Shown here one piece after another: positions 15,265 through 49,607 of a stretch of DNA of 64,000 bases. The notes under the pieces are model-generated. The model worked only from the letters and a program-made list of their open reading frames with translations, made no database searches and was not told the origin of the DNA. Each line of letters starts with the position of its first letter. The first letter of the stretch is position 1. Source of the stretch: Escherichia coli (GTDB lineage: Bacteria; Pseudomonadota; Gammaproteobacteria; Enterobacterales; Enterobacteriaceae); NCBI RefSeq assembly GCF_024223415.1, contig NZ_CP100500.1. The stretch is one strand, 5' to 3'. Made by a program: the position numbers and the translations under genes.

Positions 15265-15495
15265 TTAACAACAGCCTTCTTCTGTATGCAGCAAGGCAAA
15301 AAGTTCTGTAACTCCATTGTTATTAACTGCACTGGTTACTAACACGTTGTGCGCTCCAGCTTCCCGTAACCAACTTTTCACCAAAGATATTTGTTCCATG
15401 CTGGCTAAATCTGCTTTGGTTACTACTCCAATGACCGGGTGATTCATGGCCCGGTAGGGCGTTTTTACCTCTAATTCCTGCTTCAGCACTGAGAT
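15265..15495 (-). pseudogene. 3' fragment of an EutP/PduV-like GTPase gene (island-edge remnant)
   Basis: Minus-strand translation ...GISVLKQELEVKTPYRAMNHPVIGVVTKADLASMEQISLVKSWLREAGAHNVLVTSAVNNNGVTELFALL; no N-terminal P-loop region present. Confidence 0.5.
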
Positions 15496-15504
15496 TCCTG
15501 CTTG

Positions 15505-15677
15505 TTGCCGGAAAAGCAGGCACCTGCCGTCTGAACGGTATCGATCCGGAAGCGTATCTGCGCCATATTCTGAGCATACTGCCGGAATGGCCCTCCAACC
15601 GTGTTGACGAACTCCTGCCATGGAACGTAGTTCTCACCAATAAATAAGCGTCAATACGGTGCTCCGTTGACGCTTAC
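15505..15677 (+). mobile_element. IS66-family 3' remnant: last ~45 codons of the transposase plus terminal inverted repeat ending ...CGCTTAC
   Basis: Translates ...LNGIDPEAYLRHILSILPEWPSNRVDELLPWNVVLTNK*, similar to the C-terminus of the intact copy at 29821..31356; inverted partner at 45289. Confidence 0.75.
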
Positions 15678-15877
15678 TTTAATCCGTTTTCTGAGCTTAG
15701 ATTTTTCTGTTCCTACCCAGACCGTGGATTTGGAATTCATTTTTTGTCAGGTCAATGCTAATCGTTAAAACGGCCATAACGCACCTCCACTGGAAGGTTT
15801 ATCAGTAATATCCTACCGTTGCTTCATGGTCGGGGCGTCCATTCCATTATTATCGGTTTTCCTTTCTGTTTATAAAT

Positions 15878-41134: not shown

Positions 41135-42169
41135 TTATGCGGTCAATAATCGTCCGGGATTATCGATACAGAGTTTTTTGAGGATCGTTTTATCGACGCC
41201 GCGCTCCGCCAGATAGGCCAGAAAAACATCTGGAACAAATCCCCAGCCATTACCGCCATTTTTAGCCCACATTTGTTTAAGGAAGACATCGTGGCTGAGA
41301 ACAAGCTGATCGGCGTATCCCAACTCAATGAGATGAGCGACGGCATCGGCAGTCTCCTGCACCCCTGGCGCTATTCCCTCTTTCGGGAAGGTAATGTCTA
41401 GGCCAATCATGTCGAATTCCAGCCAGACACCTTTATCAAGCATTTTCCGCTGATACGCCACGTCTTTTCCTGACGGATCCGAGTGTGCGAGAGAGACTTT
41501 ATTTGGCGAGACGCCCATTTCACCTAACACAATGTCGAGTACTTCATCACCGCGACGAAGCCAGCCCGGCATGTGAATATTCATCGCCACATGAGGATTG
41601 TTAATCTGTGCCAGCGAGGCAGCCCGCAAGCTGTTATGCTCGGCTTCGGTAAATGTCGGTGAAACACCTATTTCACCGATCATTCCGGCACGAATATCCG
41701 TATCGCCAATCCCTTGATTCAATTCTTTATCGATCGTTGTCGCCAGTTCATCAACCGTTTTATGAATTCTCTGGCTTTCAAATTTTTCCAGGTAGGGACC
41801 GGAGGAAGCAACAATATTCAGACCTGTTTTTAATGCGACTTCTCGTAATGCCTGCGCATCTCGTCCGATAGACTCAGACCCTGTGGCATCAATAATGGTG
41901 CGACCACCGAGCGAGATAAAGTTATTGATTTCGAAGATCACATCTTCAATAGGTTTGCGGTCCATATTATCAGCGCAGCAATAAGGATCGTGTTTTAATG
42001 CCCACTGGATTTCTGCCGTGACTTTTTTATCAACAAGCCGTTGTGAAAAAGGATAGCAAGGAGCATCCACAACAGAGGAAAGATCGTTGAACAGATGTTC
42101 ATGAGGAAGTGTTAGCCCCATATCTTCACGGGCGACGGGGCCCGTCACAGTTTGTAGATAATCTTTCAT
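41135..42169 (-). CDS. Phosphotriesterase-family (PTE/PHP-like) metal-dependent hydrolase
   Basis: 344 aa; N-terminal GLTLPHEHL metal-binding signature. Confidence 0.7.
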   Translation of the reverse strand: MKDYLQTVTGPVAREDMGLTLPHEHLFNDLSSVVDAPCYPFSQRLVDKKVTAEIQWALKHDPYCCADNMDRKPIEDVIFEINNFISLGGRTIIDATGSESIGRDAQALREVALKTGLNIVASSGPYLEKFESQRIHKTVDELATTIDKELNQGIGDTDIRAGMIGEIGVSPTFTEAEHNSLRAASLAQINNPHVAMNIHMPGWLRRGDEVLDIVLGEMGVSPNKVSLAHSDPSGKDVAYQRKMLDKGVWLEFDMIGLDITFPKEGIAPGVQETADAVAHLIELGYADQLVLSHDVFLKQMWAKNGGNGWGFVPDVFLAYLAERGVDKTILKKLCIDNPGRLLTA

Positions 42170-42171
42170 GA

Positions 42172-43137
42172 TTATACCTCCATTTTCTTCATTGTTTTCG
42201 AGGTTCTGTATTCCGGAATAGTGGTAACAATTGCACCGACCAGTGCAAACAGTGTTCCGATGATCGTGACCAGATAAACGCTATTGCCCAGCGATGGAAT
42301 TAATACGTCAATCAATACTGATCCCAGTAACTGGCCCGCCGTTGAAGCAACCCCCAGCATCAGTAACCCCAGACCTCTGACCAAAATGGCCATTAAACCG
42401 ATAGACATTAGTCCAAGCGGGCCGCCAAGATACATCCACCAGACATCTGGTAATTGAACAGTGACGTGCCCTAATGCGACACGAATAGCAAGCGCTGTGC
42501 CTAAAACACAAAATCCAACGATGAAATTCTAGGTGATTGAAACCAGCATGGATCCCGTAGCTTCAGCTACTTTTGCATTTCCAGCGGGCTGCCATCCTGC
42601 AAGCAAACCAGCTAAGAACGGAAGAATGGCAAGTAAGATGAAAGAGGTAGAATGCCACTGAGGTGACACAACAAAAATCGTAGCAATAACCGCAAATAAT
42701 GCACCGATGATGCAATAAGGGGTAAAGTATTTTTTCTCGTCGACACCGATACCAAAGCGATCGCAAAGTAAACCAGACAGCAATAGCGCGGAGATCAGTG
42801 CGGTTTGAAACGTTGCGACCCCGAGTGCGCTGGCTGATGCGCCTTCAGAAAATACCACCATCGCTCCACAGAGACCGGCAAACCAGTTCCAGAGAGGAAC
42901 TTTTCGGTTTTTAATCAGAGAAGGAATTGCCGCAAATTGTTGCCGGGTTTCTTTTCGCGCCATAATAATAAAAAACATCACGACTAAACCACTGGCAAAG
43001 GAGATAACTGCGCATGCATTACCATCCTGTAACCAGTGACCTAATTGACCATTCACCGCTGATTGCATAGGGGAGAGCATACCCGCAAGAATCGTGGCAA
43101 GCATCCATAAGGGAGTTGAGTACTTATTCTTTTTCAT
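42172..43137 (-). pseudogene. Inner-membrane transporter gene interrupted by one in-frame amber codon (TAG at 42529-42531)
   Basis: ORFs 42529..43137 and 42172..42435 share a frame; membrane-like sequence continues straight across the TAG (...LVSIT*NFIVGFCVLGTALAIRVALGHVTVQLPDVWWMYLGGPLGLM...). Confidence 0.7.
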
Positions 43138-43193
43138 ACATCAATCCTTCTATTATAGTAAATGGAGTAACTGGAGTTACCCCATTATTATTA

Positions 43194-43952
43194 TTATCTT
43201 GCAATATGAGTCAGTATATTTACCCACAACGCGGTATAGAACGGCCAGGACATAAACTGCTGTGTACCCCAGTGCGGTGAACAGTCACTCATAAAGCAGG
43301 CTATTTTCCCGTTGTGATAGTTACCAAAGACCAGTAATGGAGCGTTGTTTATTGTTAATACCACCTCAGCATTTTCTTTAGCGATCGCCCGGTTATAACC
43401 TAGGAAAAAAGGATATTCAGAGAACCCTTTAATAACTGGATGTTCAGGTTGTGATGGCTGTGCAATAACACCCTCTGGTTTTTCGACACGATCGTCACCA
43501 TCTAACATCGTAACCGGGAGCACATCAGCCAGAACTGTATTTTTATAATTGGCTTTTGCTTCAATTCCCATGAATGAGAGATAGCCGCCAATCATCAATA
43601 ACCCACCACCGTTATTCACATATTCTTTAATCAGTTCGAGAGCGTTTGGTTTTATGCGAAGCTGATAAAAAGTATCATTTTGTAGCAGGAAAGTATTACT
43701 ACCAATATCACTAATAACGATGGCATCATATTGTTCTAACTGTGCCACATCTTCAGGGAAGGCAATTTGTACCGTATGTGCTGGCATATAGGTGACATCT
43801 ACCTGACTATTTTTCAGACACTGGAGTAACCAGGTCGCACCTTCTTCATATTTACTTGAGGTAAAACTGTCATATCCTTTTGAATGAATCATATGAATAT
43901 GCCAGGATTCCCCAATAAAGAGCACTTTTAGTGATTTTTTGGTGTTATTCAT
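43194..43952 (-). CDS. Class-I glutamine amidotransferase-like/ThuA-like domain protein
   Basis: 252-aa ORF; fold assignment by weak recollection only. Confidence 0.4.
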   Translation of the reverse strand: MNNTKKSLKVLFIGESWHIHMIHSKGYDSFTSSKYEEGATWLLQCLKNSQVDVTYMPAHTVQIAFPEDVAQLEQYDAIVISDIGSNTFLLQNDTFYQLRIKPNALELIKEYVNNGGGLLMIGGYLSFMGIEAKANYKNTVLADVLPVTMLDGDDRVEKPEGVIAQPSQPEHPVIKGFSEYPFFLGYNRAIAKENAEVVLTINNAPLLVFGNYHNGKIACFMSDCSPHWGTQQFMSWPFYTALWVNILTHIAR

Positions 43953-43965
43953 TCTCTGTCCCTTC

Positions 43966-45180
43966 TTAATGCGTAAAAATAGTTTGCTGATAATGTATAC
44001 TCTGAATTCGATGTATCACAGATTCATGTTCAGGCATGTCGGAAGCATTGCTTGTCTCCACCGCTAGGGATGCAAAGGCGCTGGCATAACACAGTGCTGA
44101 TTCCAGTGATTTTCCTTTCGCAAGTCCTGATGCCAGAGAGCCGTTAAACGCATCCCCGGCTCCTGCCGTATTTTTAACGACCGCTGGAAACGCTGGCGAA
44201 TGAATGAATTTTTTGCCATCAAATGCGAGCGAGCCCTTGCTACCGAGCGTGATAACCGTGTTTTTTACCCCTTTATTGTGGATAGCTTCTGCAGCTCGTT
44301 TAGCTGATTCAAGATCGTGTACGTCTATGCCGGACAGTAAACCAGCTTCTGTTTCATTGGGGGTGATATAATCAACATCCTGAATAAGTTCGTTGACGAT
44401 ATCATTATAGGGTGCCGGGTTAATAATGACCGGGATACTGTTTTTTTGCGCCAATGTGATCGCTTGTTGCAGAGCGGTATAATTTGTTTCGAGCTGCAGA
44501 AGTATGACATCAGAATTAATAATCGCTTCTTTCTGAATAGTTATTTCATCGGACGACATTGTCATGTTGGCACCGGGATAGATCGCAATAACATTATCGC
44601 CAGTACCTTCATTAACAAGGATCGTGGCAGTTCCGGTTTGCGTTTCTTTCGTTTGATAAATTATACTTTTATAAATCTTAGACGAATTCATAAAGTTGAT
44701 CGCATAATCACTAAAGTGATCTGTACCTACTTTTGTTATGAAATAAACATCAGTATCGGCAAAGCTTGCTGCCAGCGCCTGGTTACAGCCTTTTCCCCCC
44801 GGTGAAAATATAAAATTACTTGCCAGAAGCGATTCTCCGATAGTGGGAAGCCTCGGCAAATAACTGATGATATCAACATTAAACGAACCAATAACGCATA
44901 CTTGACTTTTCATAGTTGAGTGGCCTTTTTTTATTCCCTGGGCTGTATCATAATTTTCAAGCGCATAAGCGATTTCATTTTTCGCAATAGTATCAAGCGA
45001 GTCTAGGACGATAAAAGCACCGCCATGACATCGAGTCAGATAGCCAAGCCTGGCAAGTTCATTAAGATCTGAACGAATAGTTTCTTTCGTTACATTGAGG
45101 CTATTGGACAGATCGGATACTTTTACAGAACCGAATTTACTGAGTCGTTTCAATATTTCATGATGGCGTTCAAATTTCAT
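43966..45180 (-). CDS. DeoR-type HTH regulator fused to a PfkB/ribokinase-family sugar kinase
   Basis: 404 aa; N-terminal DeoR HTH (MKFERHHEILKRLSKFGSVKVSDLSNSLNVTKETIRSDLNELARLGYL); C-terminal PfkB signature DTAGAGDAFNG. Confidence 0.7.
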   Translation of the reverse strand: MKFERHHEILKRLSKFGSVKVSDLSNSLNVTKETIRSDLNELARLGYLTRCHGGAFIVLDSLDTIAKNEIAYALENYDTAQGIKKGHSTMKSQVCVIGSFNVDIISYLPRLPTIGESLLASNFIFSPGGKGCNQALAASFADTDVYFITKVGTDHFSDYAINFMNSSKIYKSIIYQTKETQTGTATILVNEGTGDNVIAIYPGANMTMSSDEITIQKEAIINSDVILLQLETNYTALQQAITLAQKNSIPVIINPAPYNDIVNELIQDVDYITPNETEAGLLSGIDVHDLESAKRAAEAIHNKGVKNTVITLGSKGSLAFDGKKFIHSPAFPAVVKNTAGAGDAFNGSLASGLAKGKSLESALCYASAFASLAVETSNASDMPEHESVIHRIQSIHYQQTIFTH

Positions 45181-45288
45181 GCTTCACCTCACTTCAGTTA
45201 CGTTAATATCTATCGATGTATATTGATGTGATAATCACCATAAAGTGGCGGGGAAAAGCAAAAAAAAGCAAAAATAGCCTGAGAAAAG

Positions 45289-45700
45289 GTAAGCGTTAAT
45301 GGAGAATCATATTGATGCTTATTTATTGGTGAGAACTACGTTCCATGGCAGGAGTTCATCAATACGGTTGGAAGGTTATTCCGGCAGTACGCTCAGGATA
45401 TGGCGCAGATACGCTTCCGGATCAATGTCGTTCAGAAGGCAAGTGCCGATAAGCCCATACAACAGTGCACTGCGCTCGCCGCCGAAGAACATAAAGTTTT
45501 TATTTCCGAGACAGATGGCACAAAGGGCTTTTTCCGCGGCATTATGTCTGCCTCCGCCTGACCGTCAACACTGTAATAACAGAGTGCGCCCCACTGATTC
45601 AGTACACAGCTGAACCATTCTCCCAGTCTGGATTTTTGGATAGCGTGGCATTTTTCTCCACCATGCATGCAGTGAGTCCAGTAACAGTTTGCTCTTCTTC
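45289..45700 (-). mobile_element. Degraded IS66-family 3' remnant (terminal IR GTAAGCG at 45289, decayed tnpC 3' region), inverted copy of the 15505-15677 fragment
   Basis: Reverse complement of 45289-45430 aligns base-for-base with 15541-15677 (about 90 percent identity by eye); ORF fragments 45432..45791 and 45565..45840 retain ...LNQWGAL... like tnpC. Confidence 0.7.
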
Positions 45701-47230
45701 TGCCTGACCACAAGATGTGCTGGACTGGTAAACGATGGGGATACCTGCTTACGCGAGAGCAATAAGTGGCTGGCCACAATTCTCGGTACAAAACTCTGCT
45801 GAATAGCAGCGATTTTCCCAGCGTGGTGCGTCGTTTTCATTTTACTGGTTCTAAGTTAACAATTATCTGTTCACTAATGACTACTCTAAAAACTTGTATC
45901 AGGACTATCACTTATTTAAGTGATATTGGTTGTCTGGAGATTCAGGGGGCCAGTCTATAAACTTTTTACAAAAGGATGAATGCAGAAGGTTACTCTAATG
46001 GCCAGAGTGATGACAATGATGGTCAGACGTTGACCTGCAGAAACTGCATTTTAATTGGTCTATAAAGTCTGCAAGAGGAATCAGGGTCAGATCAGTGAGT
46101 CTTATCGCGGCCCGAAGCTATGACTGAAAGAAGGCTGGATACAGAATTGCAACAATTTGGCAATGTCAGAACACAGAAGCTTTGCAAGCAGGTGAAAGGT
46201 TATGTCTAGCAAAAGGAGTATATCAGAATACATCTACTGATGTACAAAACACAACAATAGCTTCATGATATATAAATACGTGATGACGAGTGGTACTCCG
46301 CATGGTTATTTAACTTCTCAGCACCACTAATGATCCTGAGCAACTTCGTATTTGGGCCATTGCCATGGAGTAGAAAGCTGTGTCTGAGAATGCAGAATTT
46401 GAGAAAAGAATTCGCTTTCTTGGAGAGCTTCTGAAAATGGCACGCTAACAACGTTTTGTTAAAAAATGTGAATCACTTGCCGGGGCTGCATTTTCTATTC
46501 GAGGAGAATGTTGACGTAGATATTACAGAAATCTCAGCGCATCAGGATAAACTGCTACCTTAGGTCAACCACCAAAAGAAAATACAATACGTCCAGTTTG
46601 TATGCCTTTAATAACACATCTTCTAAATGTTGAAGAATTATCCCGCCTGCTGAAGAACGTTGCTCTGAGTGTGATAAACCTTTTTATTCTTGATGATGTC
46701 AGCGAGAAGATGGAATATATCCCCGACTGGGTCGTGGTTACCCGGTTAAACATCTGGTGGCGCTAATAAATCTGGCAAGTCACATTCTGTTGAATGCTGT
46801 GACAGTGCCTTACCGAGAGAGCGAAATTGTGGTGTTCTAGTGCATAGTCGCCACCATTCCGGATAATTCTATTGCGTTGTTTTACAAGTTCTTTTACAGC
46901 GCAGATCTGTTGCTGACGTTGAATCAATAGCCTGGATTTCAGAACACAATGCCCGTTTGCTGGTTGGTCCGGCAGTAGCATTAATTCATTATCTGAATGA
47001 AATGTGTCAATCCACAGAAACCGCTGTCAATGACACATTTTGTCGGACGTTAACACGAGAAAGTCTGGCTATTCCGTAATGCCATCTTATTTCGTAATGG
47101 ATTGAGAATGCTGGATTTTTAATTATATTACGCGCAGTATTAATCGCGTAAATGTTTTGCGGTCAGCAACGGTGGGGGATCCATTGTTCTGTTCAATGAA
47201 TACCATCATACATTTGAATCAGGAGTCGGT

Positions 47231-47776
47231 ATGATGATTTTGGTGACGGGGGGCGCACGGAGCGGGAAGAGTCGCCACGCAGAGGCGCTTATTGGGGACT
47301 CTTCACAGGTTCTGTATATCGCTACCTCGCAAATCCTTGATGATGAGATGGCTGCACGGATAGAACATCATCGGCAAGGCCGCCCGGAGCACTGGCGCAC
47401 AGTGGAGCGCTGGCAACATCTTGATGAATTAATTCATGCAGACATTAACCCGAATGAGGTTGTGTTGCTGGAATGCGTTACCACAATGGTGACTAATCTG
47501 TTGTTTGATTATGGCGGCGATAAAGACCCTGATGAATGGGATTATCAGGCGATGGAACAGGCGATTAATGCTGAGATTCAGTCGTTGATTGCTGCCTGCC
47601 AACGTTGCCCCGCAAAGGTTGTATTAGTGACTAACGAAGTGGGAATGGGGATTGTGCCGGAGAGTCGTCTGGCACGACATTTTCGTGATATTGCCGGGCG
47701 GGTAAATCAGCAGTTGGCCGCTGCGGCAAATGAAGTATGGCTGGTGGTTTCGGGTATTGGAGTAAAAATCAAATGA
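47231..47776 (+). CDS. cobU: Adenosylcobinamide kinase/adenosylcobinamide-phosphate guanylyltransferase
   Basis: 181 aa with P-loop [15 protein letters not shown] overlap with cobS. Confidence 0.93.
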
Positions 47777-48516
47777 GTAAATTATTTTGGGCGATGCTCT
47801 CATTTATTACGCGTCTGCCTGTACCGCGTCGCTGGTCCCAGGGACTGGATTTCGAGCATTATTCTCGCGGTATTATTACTTTTCCTTTAATTGGATTATT
47901 GCTTGGCGCGATTAGCGGGCTGGTCTTCATGGTGCTGCAGGCATGGTGTGGCGTACCACTGGCGGCACTGTTTAGCGTACTTGTGCTGGCGCTGATGACC
48001 GGGGGATTCCACCTGGACGGCCTCGCCGATACCTGTGATGGCGTATTTTCTGCACGTAGCCGCGATCGCATGTTGGAAATCATGCGTGATAGCCGTTTAG
48101 GCACCCATGGCGGTCTGGCATTGATTTTTGTTGTACTGGCAAAGATTCTGGTATTAAGCGAGTTGGCTCTGCGTGGCGAACCGATCCTTGCATCGCTGGC
48201 GGCAGCATGTGCGGTCAGCCGCGGGACTGCCGCATTATTGATGTATCGTCATCGTTATGCGCGGGAAGAAGGGCTTGGCAATGTGTTCATTGGCAAAATT
48301 GATGGGCGACAAACCTGCGTCACACTCGGCTTAGCCGCTATTTTTGCTGCCGTATTATTGCCGGGTATGCATGGTGTGGCTGCTATGGTGGTGACGATGG
48401 TGGCGATTTTCATCCTCGGTCAGCTTCTCAAACGTACGCTGGGCGGGCAAACCGGCGATACGCTGGGAGCTGCTATAGAGCTTGGTGAACTGGTCTTCCT
48501 GCTGGCACTGCTATAA
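47773..48516 (+). CDS. cobS: Adenosylcobinamide-GDP ribazoletransferase (cobalamin synthase)
   Basis: ORF 47737..48516; 247-aa product from [18 protein letters not shown] (47773). Confidence 0.92.
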
Positions 48517-48527
48517 AGAGACGTGAC

Positions 48528-49607
48528 ATGCAAACACTTGCCGATTTACTGAATACGATCCCTGCTATCGATCCTGCCGCTATGTCGCGTGCACAACGGC
48601 ATATTGACGGGTTACTCAAACCTGTTGGTAGCCTGGGAAGGCTGGAGGCGCTTGCCATACAACTGGCGGGAATGCCGGGGTTGAATGGCATACCGCATGT
48701 GGGCAAAAAAGCGGTACTGGTTATGTGTGCCGATCACGGCGTCTGGGAGGAAGGGGTCGCTATTTCCCCAAAAGAAGTGACAGCCATTCAGGCTGAAAAT
48801 ATGACCCGCGGAACAACCGGCGTGTGTGTGCTGGCAGCACAAGCGGGCGCTAACGTCCACGTAGTTGATGTTGGTATTGATAGTGCTGAGCCTATCCCCG
48901 GGCTTATCAACATGCGTGTCGCACGAGGTAGCGGCAATATTGCTTCAGCTCCGGCAATGAGTCGCCGTCAGGCTGAAAAGTTGCTTTTGGACGTCATATG
49001 TTATACGCGGGAGCTGGCAAAAAACGGTGTCACGCTGTTTGGTGTAGGTGAACTGGGGATGGCAAACACGACACCGGCAGCGGCAATAGTCAGCACAATC
49101 ACTGGCCGGGATCCTGAAGAAGTGGTTGGGATTGGCGCAAACCTGCCGACAGATAAACTGGCTAATAAAATTGATGTTGTGCGCCGGGCGATTACGTTGA
49201 ATCAACCAAATCCGCAGGATGGCGTTGATGTCCTGGCAAAAGTGGGTGGATTTGATTTGGTCGGAATGGCTGGCGTGATGTTAGGCGCTGCTTCCTGCGG
49301 TTTACCCGTGTTGCTGGATGGATTTCTTTCTTATGCTGCCGCGCTCGCAGCCTGCCAGATGTCTCCTGCAAACAAACCGTATCTCATTCCTTCTCACCTG
49401 TCGGCAGAAAAAGGGGCGCGTATTGCGCTGTCGCATTTGGGGCTGGAGCCTTATCTCAATATGGAGATGCGTTTAGGTGAGGGGAGTGGCGCAGCTCTGG
49501 CGATGCCCATCATCGAAGCTGTCTGTGCGATATATAACAACATGGGCGAACTTGCTGCCAGTAATATTGTTCTACCGGGGAATACGACTTCTGATTTGAA
49601 CAGTTAA
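48528..49607 (+). CDS. cobT: Nicotinate-nucleotide--dimethylbenzimidazole phosphoribosyltransferase
   Basis: 359-aa [43 protein letters not shown]... Confidence 0.93.

Follow-up and report, generated by a model that had tools for sequence, protein, structure and literature searches.

What occupies the DNA immediately upstream of cobU in Escherichia coli, where a genomic island meets the core chromosome, and does any of it still function? In the window (the whole 64,000-nucleotide stretch of E. coli DNA that was analysed), the gene order leads from the his operon to yeeZ, sbcB, dacD, sbmC, yeeA and tmaR (yeeX), followed by the island and by cobU-cobS-cobT-ldtA. A first-pass annotation had described positions 45700-47230 as about 1.5 kb of AT-rich DNA with only short broken open reading frames (ORFs), lying between an IS66 remnant and cobU, and had suggested that it consists of eroded island-edge genes and may contain the junction of the accessory segment with the core chromosome. 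Alignment to K-12 and other E. coli and translated searches for gene relics had been proposed as checks, with a conserved intact gene or a structured RNA named as evidence to the contrary. The analysis reported here points, with a probability of about 0.9, to a non-functional scar built in layers, with insertion sequence (IS) relics at the island edge followed by the remains of a cbiG'-'cbiP deletion. Within it, the cobUST promoter would be the sole working element. The features of the region are collected in Table 1.

Table 1. Features at the right edge of the island and upstream of cobU, in window coordinates.
Feature	Position	Strand	Evidence or remark
IS66-family relic: last ~137 tnpC codons plus one terminal inverted repeat (starting GTAAGCG, 45290)	45290-45714	-	
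IS2-like (IS3 family) left end: leader and first ~30 orfA codons	45720-45957	-	blastn, megablast
Non-coding island spacer, 229 bp	45958-46186	none	collinearity with other strains
IS66-like relic (yoeG): tnpB 3' tail, spacer, tnpC codons 1-151	46187-46745	+	blastn, tblastn
Putative internal fragment of an IS4-family transposase gene (includes yeeH), one stop, no element end	46730-46933	+	NCBIfam, PGAP
Junction of accessory island DNA and ancestral chromosome	46934/46935		precise to about 2 bp
cbiG' relic	46935-47079	+	PGAP, NCBIfam, tblastn
Decayed cbiP 3' end	~47091-47230	+	blastn, alignment; no reading frame left
Predicted sigma-70 promoter of cobUST, TTGAGA-16-TATATT	47102-47129	+	consensus scan, 10/12
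cobU, first intact core gene	47231-47776	+	ORF list, RefSeq annotation

Base composition and coding content

The coordinates and general description given by the first-pass annotation hold, with a GC content of 41.6% over the 1531 bp of 45700-47230 compared with 49.8% across the whole window, and with no ORF starting at ATG, GTG or TTG and lying fully inside the stretch exceeding 72 aa in the ORF list. The longest stop-free run in six frames is 87 codons, which is the minimum among all windows of the same size in the 64 kb (median 282) and is comparable to the mean of 91 (sd 20) obtained from mononucleotide shuffles. As the longest frame equals that of the shuffles, the stretch behaves as random sequence. 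In six-frame Pfam and NCBIfam scans, the 3' relic of IS66 was recovered together with a low-scoring IS4 match and nothing else, while an Rfam scan with permissive filters over 44500-48000 gave zero matches at E<=1 and ARAGORN found neither tRNA nor tmRNA in the stretch. Across the ORF list, Rfam, Pfam, NCBIfam and ARAGORN, no conserved intact gene or structured RNA was recovered here. A repeat search in the stretch yielded short families only, attributable to chance, and a hairpin-like repeat at 47003-47037 is not kept in the allele of E. coli strains that still carry the pdu genes (pdu+). All segments except the 229-bp spacer significantly match an IS gene or a cbi gene, each match being truncated, interrupted by stops or both, and the fragments are already annotated as pseudogene pieces in RefSeq/PGAP and in K-12. 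No product would be expected from 45700-47090, the lack of function being an inference.

Insertion sequence relics and spacer at the island edge

The left flank is the IS66 remnant that had been recognised before, with 45700 falling about 15 bp within it. Its tnpC portion corresponds to the 3' third of the gene, is frameshifted and stop-bearing, and matches Pfam PF13817 (IS66_C; E 1.7e-13, above cut-off), PF03050 and NCBIfam NF033517 (E 1e-8). Residues 376-509 of the intact TnpC encoded in the window align to 45714-45331 (tblastn E 5e-28), and PGAP places a pseudogene labelled 'IS66 family transposase' at 45376-45714. As the full tnpA-tnpB-tnpC set is missing and TnpC residues ~376-512 and one end are what is left, this is a relic and not an element. 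The adjoining IS2-like relic is also incomplete, lacking a complete orfA-orfB and a second inverted repeat, with about 240 bp remaining before the IS66 remnant is reached. Its terminal 45 nt (45913-45957) are the same as the IRL end of the K-12 IS2, and 45784-45957 shows 82.9% identity over 175 bp to K-12 IS2F in blastn, or about 83% over the ~130 nt past the 45-mer. In megablast, matches at 82-83% were obtained to features annotated as 'IS3-like element IS2 family transposase', together with a 90.8% copy that spans 45720-45957.

The IS2-like end cuts an intergenic spacer, of which the 229 bp to its right are 100% identical in K-12, Nissle 1917 and O157:H7. In Nissle 1917 and O157:H7 this spacer extends about 400 bp further left, to the start of an intact hma-type TonB-dependent receptor gene. 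Searches of the 229 bp with Pfam, NCBIfam and tblastn of IS66 proteins gave neither a protein-family nor an IS match, and the known origin of the spacer is limited to its position upstream of hma in other strains.

The spacer is followed by a second IS66-like relic, which was identified via distant blastn matches to plasmids. Positions 46187-46738 share 71.5% DNA identity over 552 bp with the tnpB end and tnpC start of an intact plasmid IS66-family element, and residues 1-151 of the plasmid TnpC align to the relic in tblastn (E 5e-24) with several stops and frame changes, the alignment ending at residue 151. The relic is 99.6% identical to K-12, where the pseudogene yoeG corresponds to ~46303-46835, and the repeat search found no inverted repeats for it. 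No match to it was obtained in tblastn with the TnpA, TnpB and TnpC of the window's own IS66, and the yoeG relic is assigned, on sequence comparison, to a different IS66 subgroup. The putative IS4-family fragment overlapping its right end was recognised through a weak match to positions 132-199 of the 332-position NCBIfam profile NF033592. At E 9.8e-5 and 21.6 bits, this match lies well under the curated cut-off of 115, and Pfam gave none. PGAP annotates an 'IS4 family transposase' pseudogene at 46739-46927, and the K-12 pseudogene yeeH (46841-46927) is the right part of the same fragment. The IS4 assignment rests on this weak profile match together with the PGAP label. As the piece is internal to the transposase gene, its right border is not an element end.

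Together, these relics support the suggestion that the right edge of the island is eroded DNA, while refining the proposal that island genes had decayed there: what remains is pieces of four ISs and an intergenic spacer, not cargo genes.

The junction with the core chromosome

Alignment to K-12 and other E. coli showed that 45958-47230 is collinear with K-12 and 99-100% identical to it, and the translated searches recovered the IS66 tnpC and cbiG relics. The junction suspected within the stretch is indeed present and could be located at 46934/46935, where homology to the island-free, pdu-carrying E. coli 2014C-3655 starts, running to 47829 at 92.8% identity. The PGAP IS4 fragment ends on the junction side, at 46927. 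Attribution of the stretch to the island consequently stands up to 46934, while the last 296 bp (46935-47230) are ancestral chromosome, the scar of a lost cbi operon. This sets the right island boundary about 40 bp from the annotated end of CP4-44 in K-12. At the left breakpoint, homology to pdu+ E. coli stops at 15447, inside pduV (15447/8), so that 17.5 kb of the pdu+ layout (pdu, pocR, riboswitch and 5' cbiG') are replaced by the island in the window. Considering the pduV relic at the left edge as well, the island occupies the gap left by the pdu-cbi block.

Of 5426 complete E. coli genomes, 3728 contain an uninterrupted match to a 121-bp probe over the junction, and 45959-46837 was found in 4011 (74%), nearly always at >=99% identity. 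The arrangement of the present strain recurs in 774 genomes. Between the IS2-like end and the junction (45958-46934), identity to K-12, Nissle 1917 and O157:H7, representing phylogroups A, B2 and E, is 98.5-100%. Taken by itself, such identity of the island's right arm is readable as constraint.

Island-bearing genomes of different phylogroups share 99.3-99.8% identity over the cbi scar and cobU, falling to 97-98.4% only in cobS and cobT, and the reverse pattern across these two segments is seen in pdu+ strains and in an empty-site strain, which has neither island nor pdu block (tmaR-pduV'-cobU). As cobU and the cbi relic are equally similar among island genomes, the arm identity points to a shared haplotype or recombination block, ending near the cobU/cobS boundary and travelling with the island, and not to constraint on the debris. 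Later insertions have also struck the debris repeatedly: an IS5 at CTAG 46838-46841 in K-12, an ISEc8 in O157:H7, accompanied by an 8-bp duplication (46962-46969), and IS1 insertions in other strains. These events fit DNA that is free to be disrupted.

The cbiG'-'cbiP scar upstream of cobU

In the 296 bp of ancestral chromosome, 46935 to ~47014 corresponds to codons ~89-118 of a truncated 145-codon cbiG ORF, whose frame continues to a stop at 47079. The window retains codons ~89-145 of this cbiG' ORF, of which about 30 codons are CbiG-homologous sequence, whereas pdu+ E. coli and other Escherichia have kept the ORF in full. The window fragment gives no family match when searched alone, and its homology to CbiG, the cobalt-precorrin-5A hydrolase, is established indirectly, through the pdu+ ORF, to which it is 73% identical over residues 86-145 (tblastn). 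The 145-aa product of that ORF matches the NCBIfam CbiG equivalog model NF004463 over positions 1-125 of 351 (E 1.6e-19; 70 bits against a cut-off of 546), and its residues 1-112 match the cbiG of Citrobacter, Salmonella and Klebsiella, a gene located about 8.1 kb upstream of cobU (tblastn). A full-length CbiG (~351 aa) with its C-terminal domain is absent. PGAP annotates 46936-47079 as 'cobalamin biosynthesis protein, missing N-terminus', a fragment that can now be given as the tail of the truncated cbiG. A reading of the same fragment as the cbiP C-terminus was rejected, since its frame is CbiG N-terminal and homology to cbiP extends over no more than the final ~140 bp, which are non-coding.

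These last bases (47091-47230) align collinearly, at 62-68% identity, with the 3'-terminal ~145 bp of the Citrobacter and Salmonella cbiP (cobyric acid synthase) genes, and the alignments always end exactly at the cobU start. The match has a blastn E-value of 4e-7 with the window sequence and of 9e-13 with E. whittamii as intermediate. In the relatives, cbiP has ~512-525 codons and overlaps the cobU start, and no corresponding open frame is found in the relic. As cbiG homology ends at ~47014 and cbiP homology begins at ~47062-47091, some 50 bp further on, the fusion point lies within 47014-47090, which is an approximate placement. Taken together, the two relics show the so-called 'intergenic' DNA in front of E. 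coli cobU to be what remains of a cbiG'-'cbiP deletion. The cobalamin riboswitch (Rfam RF00174) gave no match in 44500-48000, and pdu+ strains have one annotated upstream of cbiG'.

The cobUST promoter and possible co-option of the debris

The predicted cobUST promoter falls within what is left of cbiP, and a published list of RpoD constitutive promoters gives identical hexamers, equally spaced, for cobUST (PMC3946193). Its -35 hexamer is kept in all aligned Escherichia and is missing from cbiP in Citrobacter, Salmonella and Klebsiella, where that gene is still coding. It illustrates how dead coding sequence can give rise to a promoter. The added value of the analysis is modest in this respect, consisting of the reassignment of the last 296 bp to a cbiG'-'cbiP scar which now supplies the cobUST promoter.

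A second site invites the question of whether the IS debris has itself been put to use. The hexamers TGTACA-17-CATGAT occur in the yoeG relic at 46241-46269 on the + strand, oriented as cobU, and this sequence has been listed as an RpoD-holoenzyme site for yoeG (PMC3946193). The reported binding site upstream of the relic makes some relic transcription possible. With no terminator-like site predicted on the + strand of 46270-47231, a promoter at this position might read through into cobUST in strains where the K-12 IS5 is absent, the present one included, and so supplement cobUST expression once the cbi leader with its riboswitch control had disappeared. This is considered improbable: the site derives from SELEX, which reports in vitro binding and not in vivo transcription, and the number of promoter-like sites in the region (5) is close to that in shuffled sequence (4.4). 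The IS5 of K-12 separates the yoeG site from cobU, yet K-12 keeps its own cobUST promoter, and the debris of further strains has been hit by ISEc8 or IS1 or has suffered deletions. The broader proposal, that IS debris and decayed cbi scar jointly form a makeshift regulatory region in which cobUST is driven by both the cbiP-tail and the yoeG read-through promoters, and that the ~1 kb arm has been retained in ~70% of E. coli for that role, is equally doubtful. Retention of the arm in 74% of genomes speaks for co-option, but its high identity is accounted for by the shared haplotype block.

Less probable still is a genuine small-protein gene among the short ORFs, the candidates being a 54-codon frame at 46602-46766 (WP_001128468.1) and a 40-codon frame at 46957-47079. 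Both are conserved in DNA sequence, and PGAP calls the 54-aa ORF as a CDS for a hypothetical protein in some genomes. Nonetheless, the 54-aa ORF is merely a part of the IS66 TnpC relic that has stayed open, aligned to TnpC residues ~100-151, and the 40-aa ORF corresponds to what is left of the cbiG' tail; their lengths are as in random sequence, neither has a family match, and the locus is broken at different points in other strains. Integration of the island through an integrase at a site-specific att site next to cobU is just as implausible, in spite of cobU being a recurrent island location with PAI-cobU in many extraintestinal pathogenic (ExPEC) strains (PMC7545054), given that the stretch has no tRNA or tmRNA gene and no annotated integrase, that no direct repeat links the two island junctions, and that both junctions lie inside truncated genes (the left in pduV, the right between the internal IS4 fragment and mid-cbiG), which is typical of deletion or replacement and not of integrase-mediated insertion. 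A layered, non-functional scar remains the preferred reading of the stretch.

Proposed history of the locus

From the homologies, breakpoints and population frequencies, an order of events can be proposed for the formation of this scar. The ancestor of Escherichia would have had the gene order customary in enterobacteria, tmaR-pdu-pocR-riboswitch-cbiA..cbiP-cobUST. A deletion within this block would then have fused codon ~118 of cbiG with the final ~150 bp of cbiP, leaving the 145-codon cbiG' ORF beside cobU. The cbiG'-'cbiP fusion is common to pdu+ E. coli, E. whittamii and a genome labelled E. coli E69, and its occurrence in the latter two suggests that it predates the island. A promoter born in the decayed cbiP tail would have taken over from read-through under riboswitch control and from the overlap of the cbiP stop with the cobU start, both seen in the relatives. 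In the lineage of most E. coli, the segment from the interior of pduV (15447/8) to the interior of cbiG' (46934/5) was probably replaced by an island of the CP4-44 / PAI-cobU family, whose right arm would consist of the hma upstream spacer and truncated IS66-like and IS4-like elements. In the sub-lineage of this strain, an IS2-like element may have landed at 45957/8 and been truncated later beside a further IS66 copy, hma being lost.

The empty-site strain was considered as a pre-insertion state and rejected. It is without 46935-47042, a segment found in island and pdu+ strains alike; the relic allele next to its cobU is of the pdu+ type (98.9%), its cobU, cobS and cobT follow the pdu+ strain in their identities to the window, and its junction shows an imperfect microhomology of 7-8 bp. 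The missing segment, the pdu+-type allele and the microhomology together indicate that this strain arose by secondary deletion. No new kind of gene, RNA or mechanism emerges from this history, and its importance is mainly one of bookkeeping.

Comparison with known systems

The gap between tmaR and cobU is a recognised site for islands, called CP4-44 in K-12 and PAI-cobU in uropathogenic E. coli (UPEC). The stretch closely resembles the right end of the cryptic prophage CP4-44 in K-12, with yoeG and yeeH both alike. The two differ in the IS5H inserted in K-12, which is not in the window, and in the DNA to the left of 45957, where K-12 has yoeH and yoeA, an hma relic split by IS2, and the window has the IS2-like end and the IS66 3' remnant. 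The annotated CP4-44 boundary of K-12 corresponds to about window position 46975, inside the cbiG' relic.

The PAI-cobU islands described in the ExPEC strains 536, CFT073 and UTI89, with Hma and Fbp as cargo (PMC7545054), occupy the same tmaR-cobU gap, and the right arm is alike in Nissle 1917, a B2 representative, where spacer, IS66-like, IS4 and cbiG' relics are all found. These islands keep an intact hma about 400 bp to the left of 45958, unlike the island in the window, which is without hma. The cargo also differs, the window's island having a PfkB kinase, an amidotransferase, a DMT transporter and dynamin-like genes.

When compared to the cbi-cobUST operons of Salmonella, Citrobacter and Klebsiella, the window retains a 5' part of cbiG, the 3' end of cbiP and the position of cobU, and lacks about 8 kb (the 3' part of cbiG through most of cbiP), the reading frame and the riboswitch. 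The window cobU has its own promoter, whereas in the three relatives cobU overlaps the cbiP stop codon. A counterpart of the scar is found in pdu+ E. coli, where strain 2014C-3655 shares both the cbiG'-'cbiP fusion and the promoter hexamers with the window. Its layout is tmaR-pduV..pduA-pduF-pocR-riboswitch-cbiG'(145 aa)-cobUST with no island, and it is the interval from mid-pduV to mid-cbiG' that is occupied in the window by a 31.5 kb island.

Left margin of the island and the empty site

The left junction of the island lies at 15447/15448, where homology to pdu+ E. coli stops, and a relic of pduV is preserved there beside tmaR. Taken together, the relic and the point at which homology ends indicate that the island occupies the space vacated by the pdu-pocR-cbi block. 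Another 3'-end remnant of IS66 has been detected ~70 bp inside this junction. Its identity to the right-hand remnant is 88% and its orientation is inverted, so that IS66 ends in inverted arrangement flank the island of this strain on both sides. An "empty site", with neither island nor pdu, occurs in E. coli O152:H23 Res13-Lact-ER01-35, where pduV' (equivalent to window position 15439) is fused straight to window position 47043, with the imperfect microhomology TCGGGCG/TCGGACG at the joint. In this strain, pduV is broken just ~8 bp away from the left island junction.

As regards island content, the cargo adjoining the debris comprises a PfkB-family kinase with an N-terminal HTH, a glutamine amidotransferase, a DMT transporter and a phosphotriesterase-related protein. 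An internal stop has been annotated in the DMT transporter of a strain identical to the window across 45200-47300. Deeper in the island, an ISL3 pseudogene and a gamma-glutamyltransferase fragment occur.

Coordinates of features at the island margins and in compared loci (window positions unless a locus is named)
Feature	Position	Strand	Genome	Remark
pduV 3' relic (EutP/PduV family), 61 codons	15265-15447	-		adjoins tmaR
Left IS66 3'-end remnant	15519-15680			
Island cargo beside the debris	41135-45180			
Right-hand IS66 remnant	45286-45447			
IS5H	46838-46841 (CTAG)		K-12	
ISEc8	46962-46969		O157:H7	8-bp target duplication
IS1	~47090/47091		Ec-050-T5-ESBL	all DNA left of 47091 removed
145-codon cbiG' ORF regions	L006 3342-4172; L010 9432-9866; L008 9443-9877		pdu+ E. 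coli; E. whittamii; genome labelled E. coli E69	
Empty-site joint	L005 3990-4010		O152:H23 Res13-Lact-ER01-35	
Possible cbiA 5' remnant	L006 3517-3734		pdu+ E. coli	riboswitch-to-cbiG' interval

Truncated cbiG upstream of cobU

In pdu+ E. coli, in E. whittamii and in a genome labelled E. coli E69, cobU is directly preceded by a 145-codon truncated cbiG ORF (cbiG'), with a cobalamin riboswitch annotated upstream of it in the pdu+ strain. The frame is intact in all three lineages, at 69-75% amino acid identity, and pairwise dN/dS values are 0.45-0.64 for cbiG' as opposed to 0.09-0.20 for cobU. Judged from these sequences, selection on cbiG' looks relaxed, yet not clearly neutral. In the pdu+ strain, a short stretch (MAASFSSFIAVPTG...) lying between the riboswitch and cbiG' was read by eye, in comparison with Salmonella CbiA, as a possible cbiA 5' remnant. 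Such a remnant would imply a second internal deletion, with cbiA' and the end of cbiF as its limits.

Haplotype change near the cobU/cobS boundary

Across the cbi scar, cobU, cobS and cobT (46935-49607), a change of haplotype has been located near the cobU/cobS boundary. The island-type strains K-12, Nissle and O157 share 99.3-99.8% identity with the window as far as the end of cobU and 97-98.4% in cobS and cobT; for the pdu+ and empty-site strains, the values are 92.8-97.8% up to cobU and 98.6-99.5% in cobS and cobT. This switch in identity suggests joint recombinational exchange of the island and cobU.

Later insertions and the annotated end of CP4-44

The same debris has been struck by independent later insertions in other strains, at the three sites listed for IS5H, ISEc8 and IS1. 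In the K-12 record, the "cryptic prophage CP4-44" ends at NC_000913.3 position 2066020, equivalent to window position ~46975. The junction located here lies ~40 bp further left, and the annotated end falls within the cbiG' relic.
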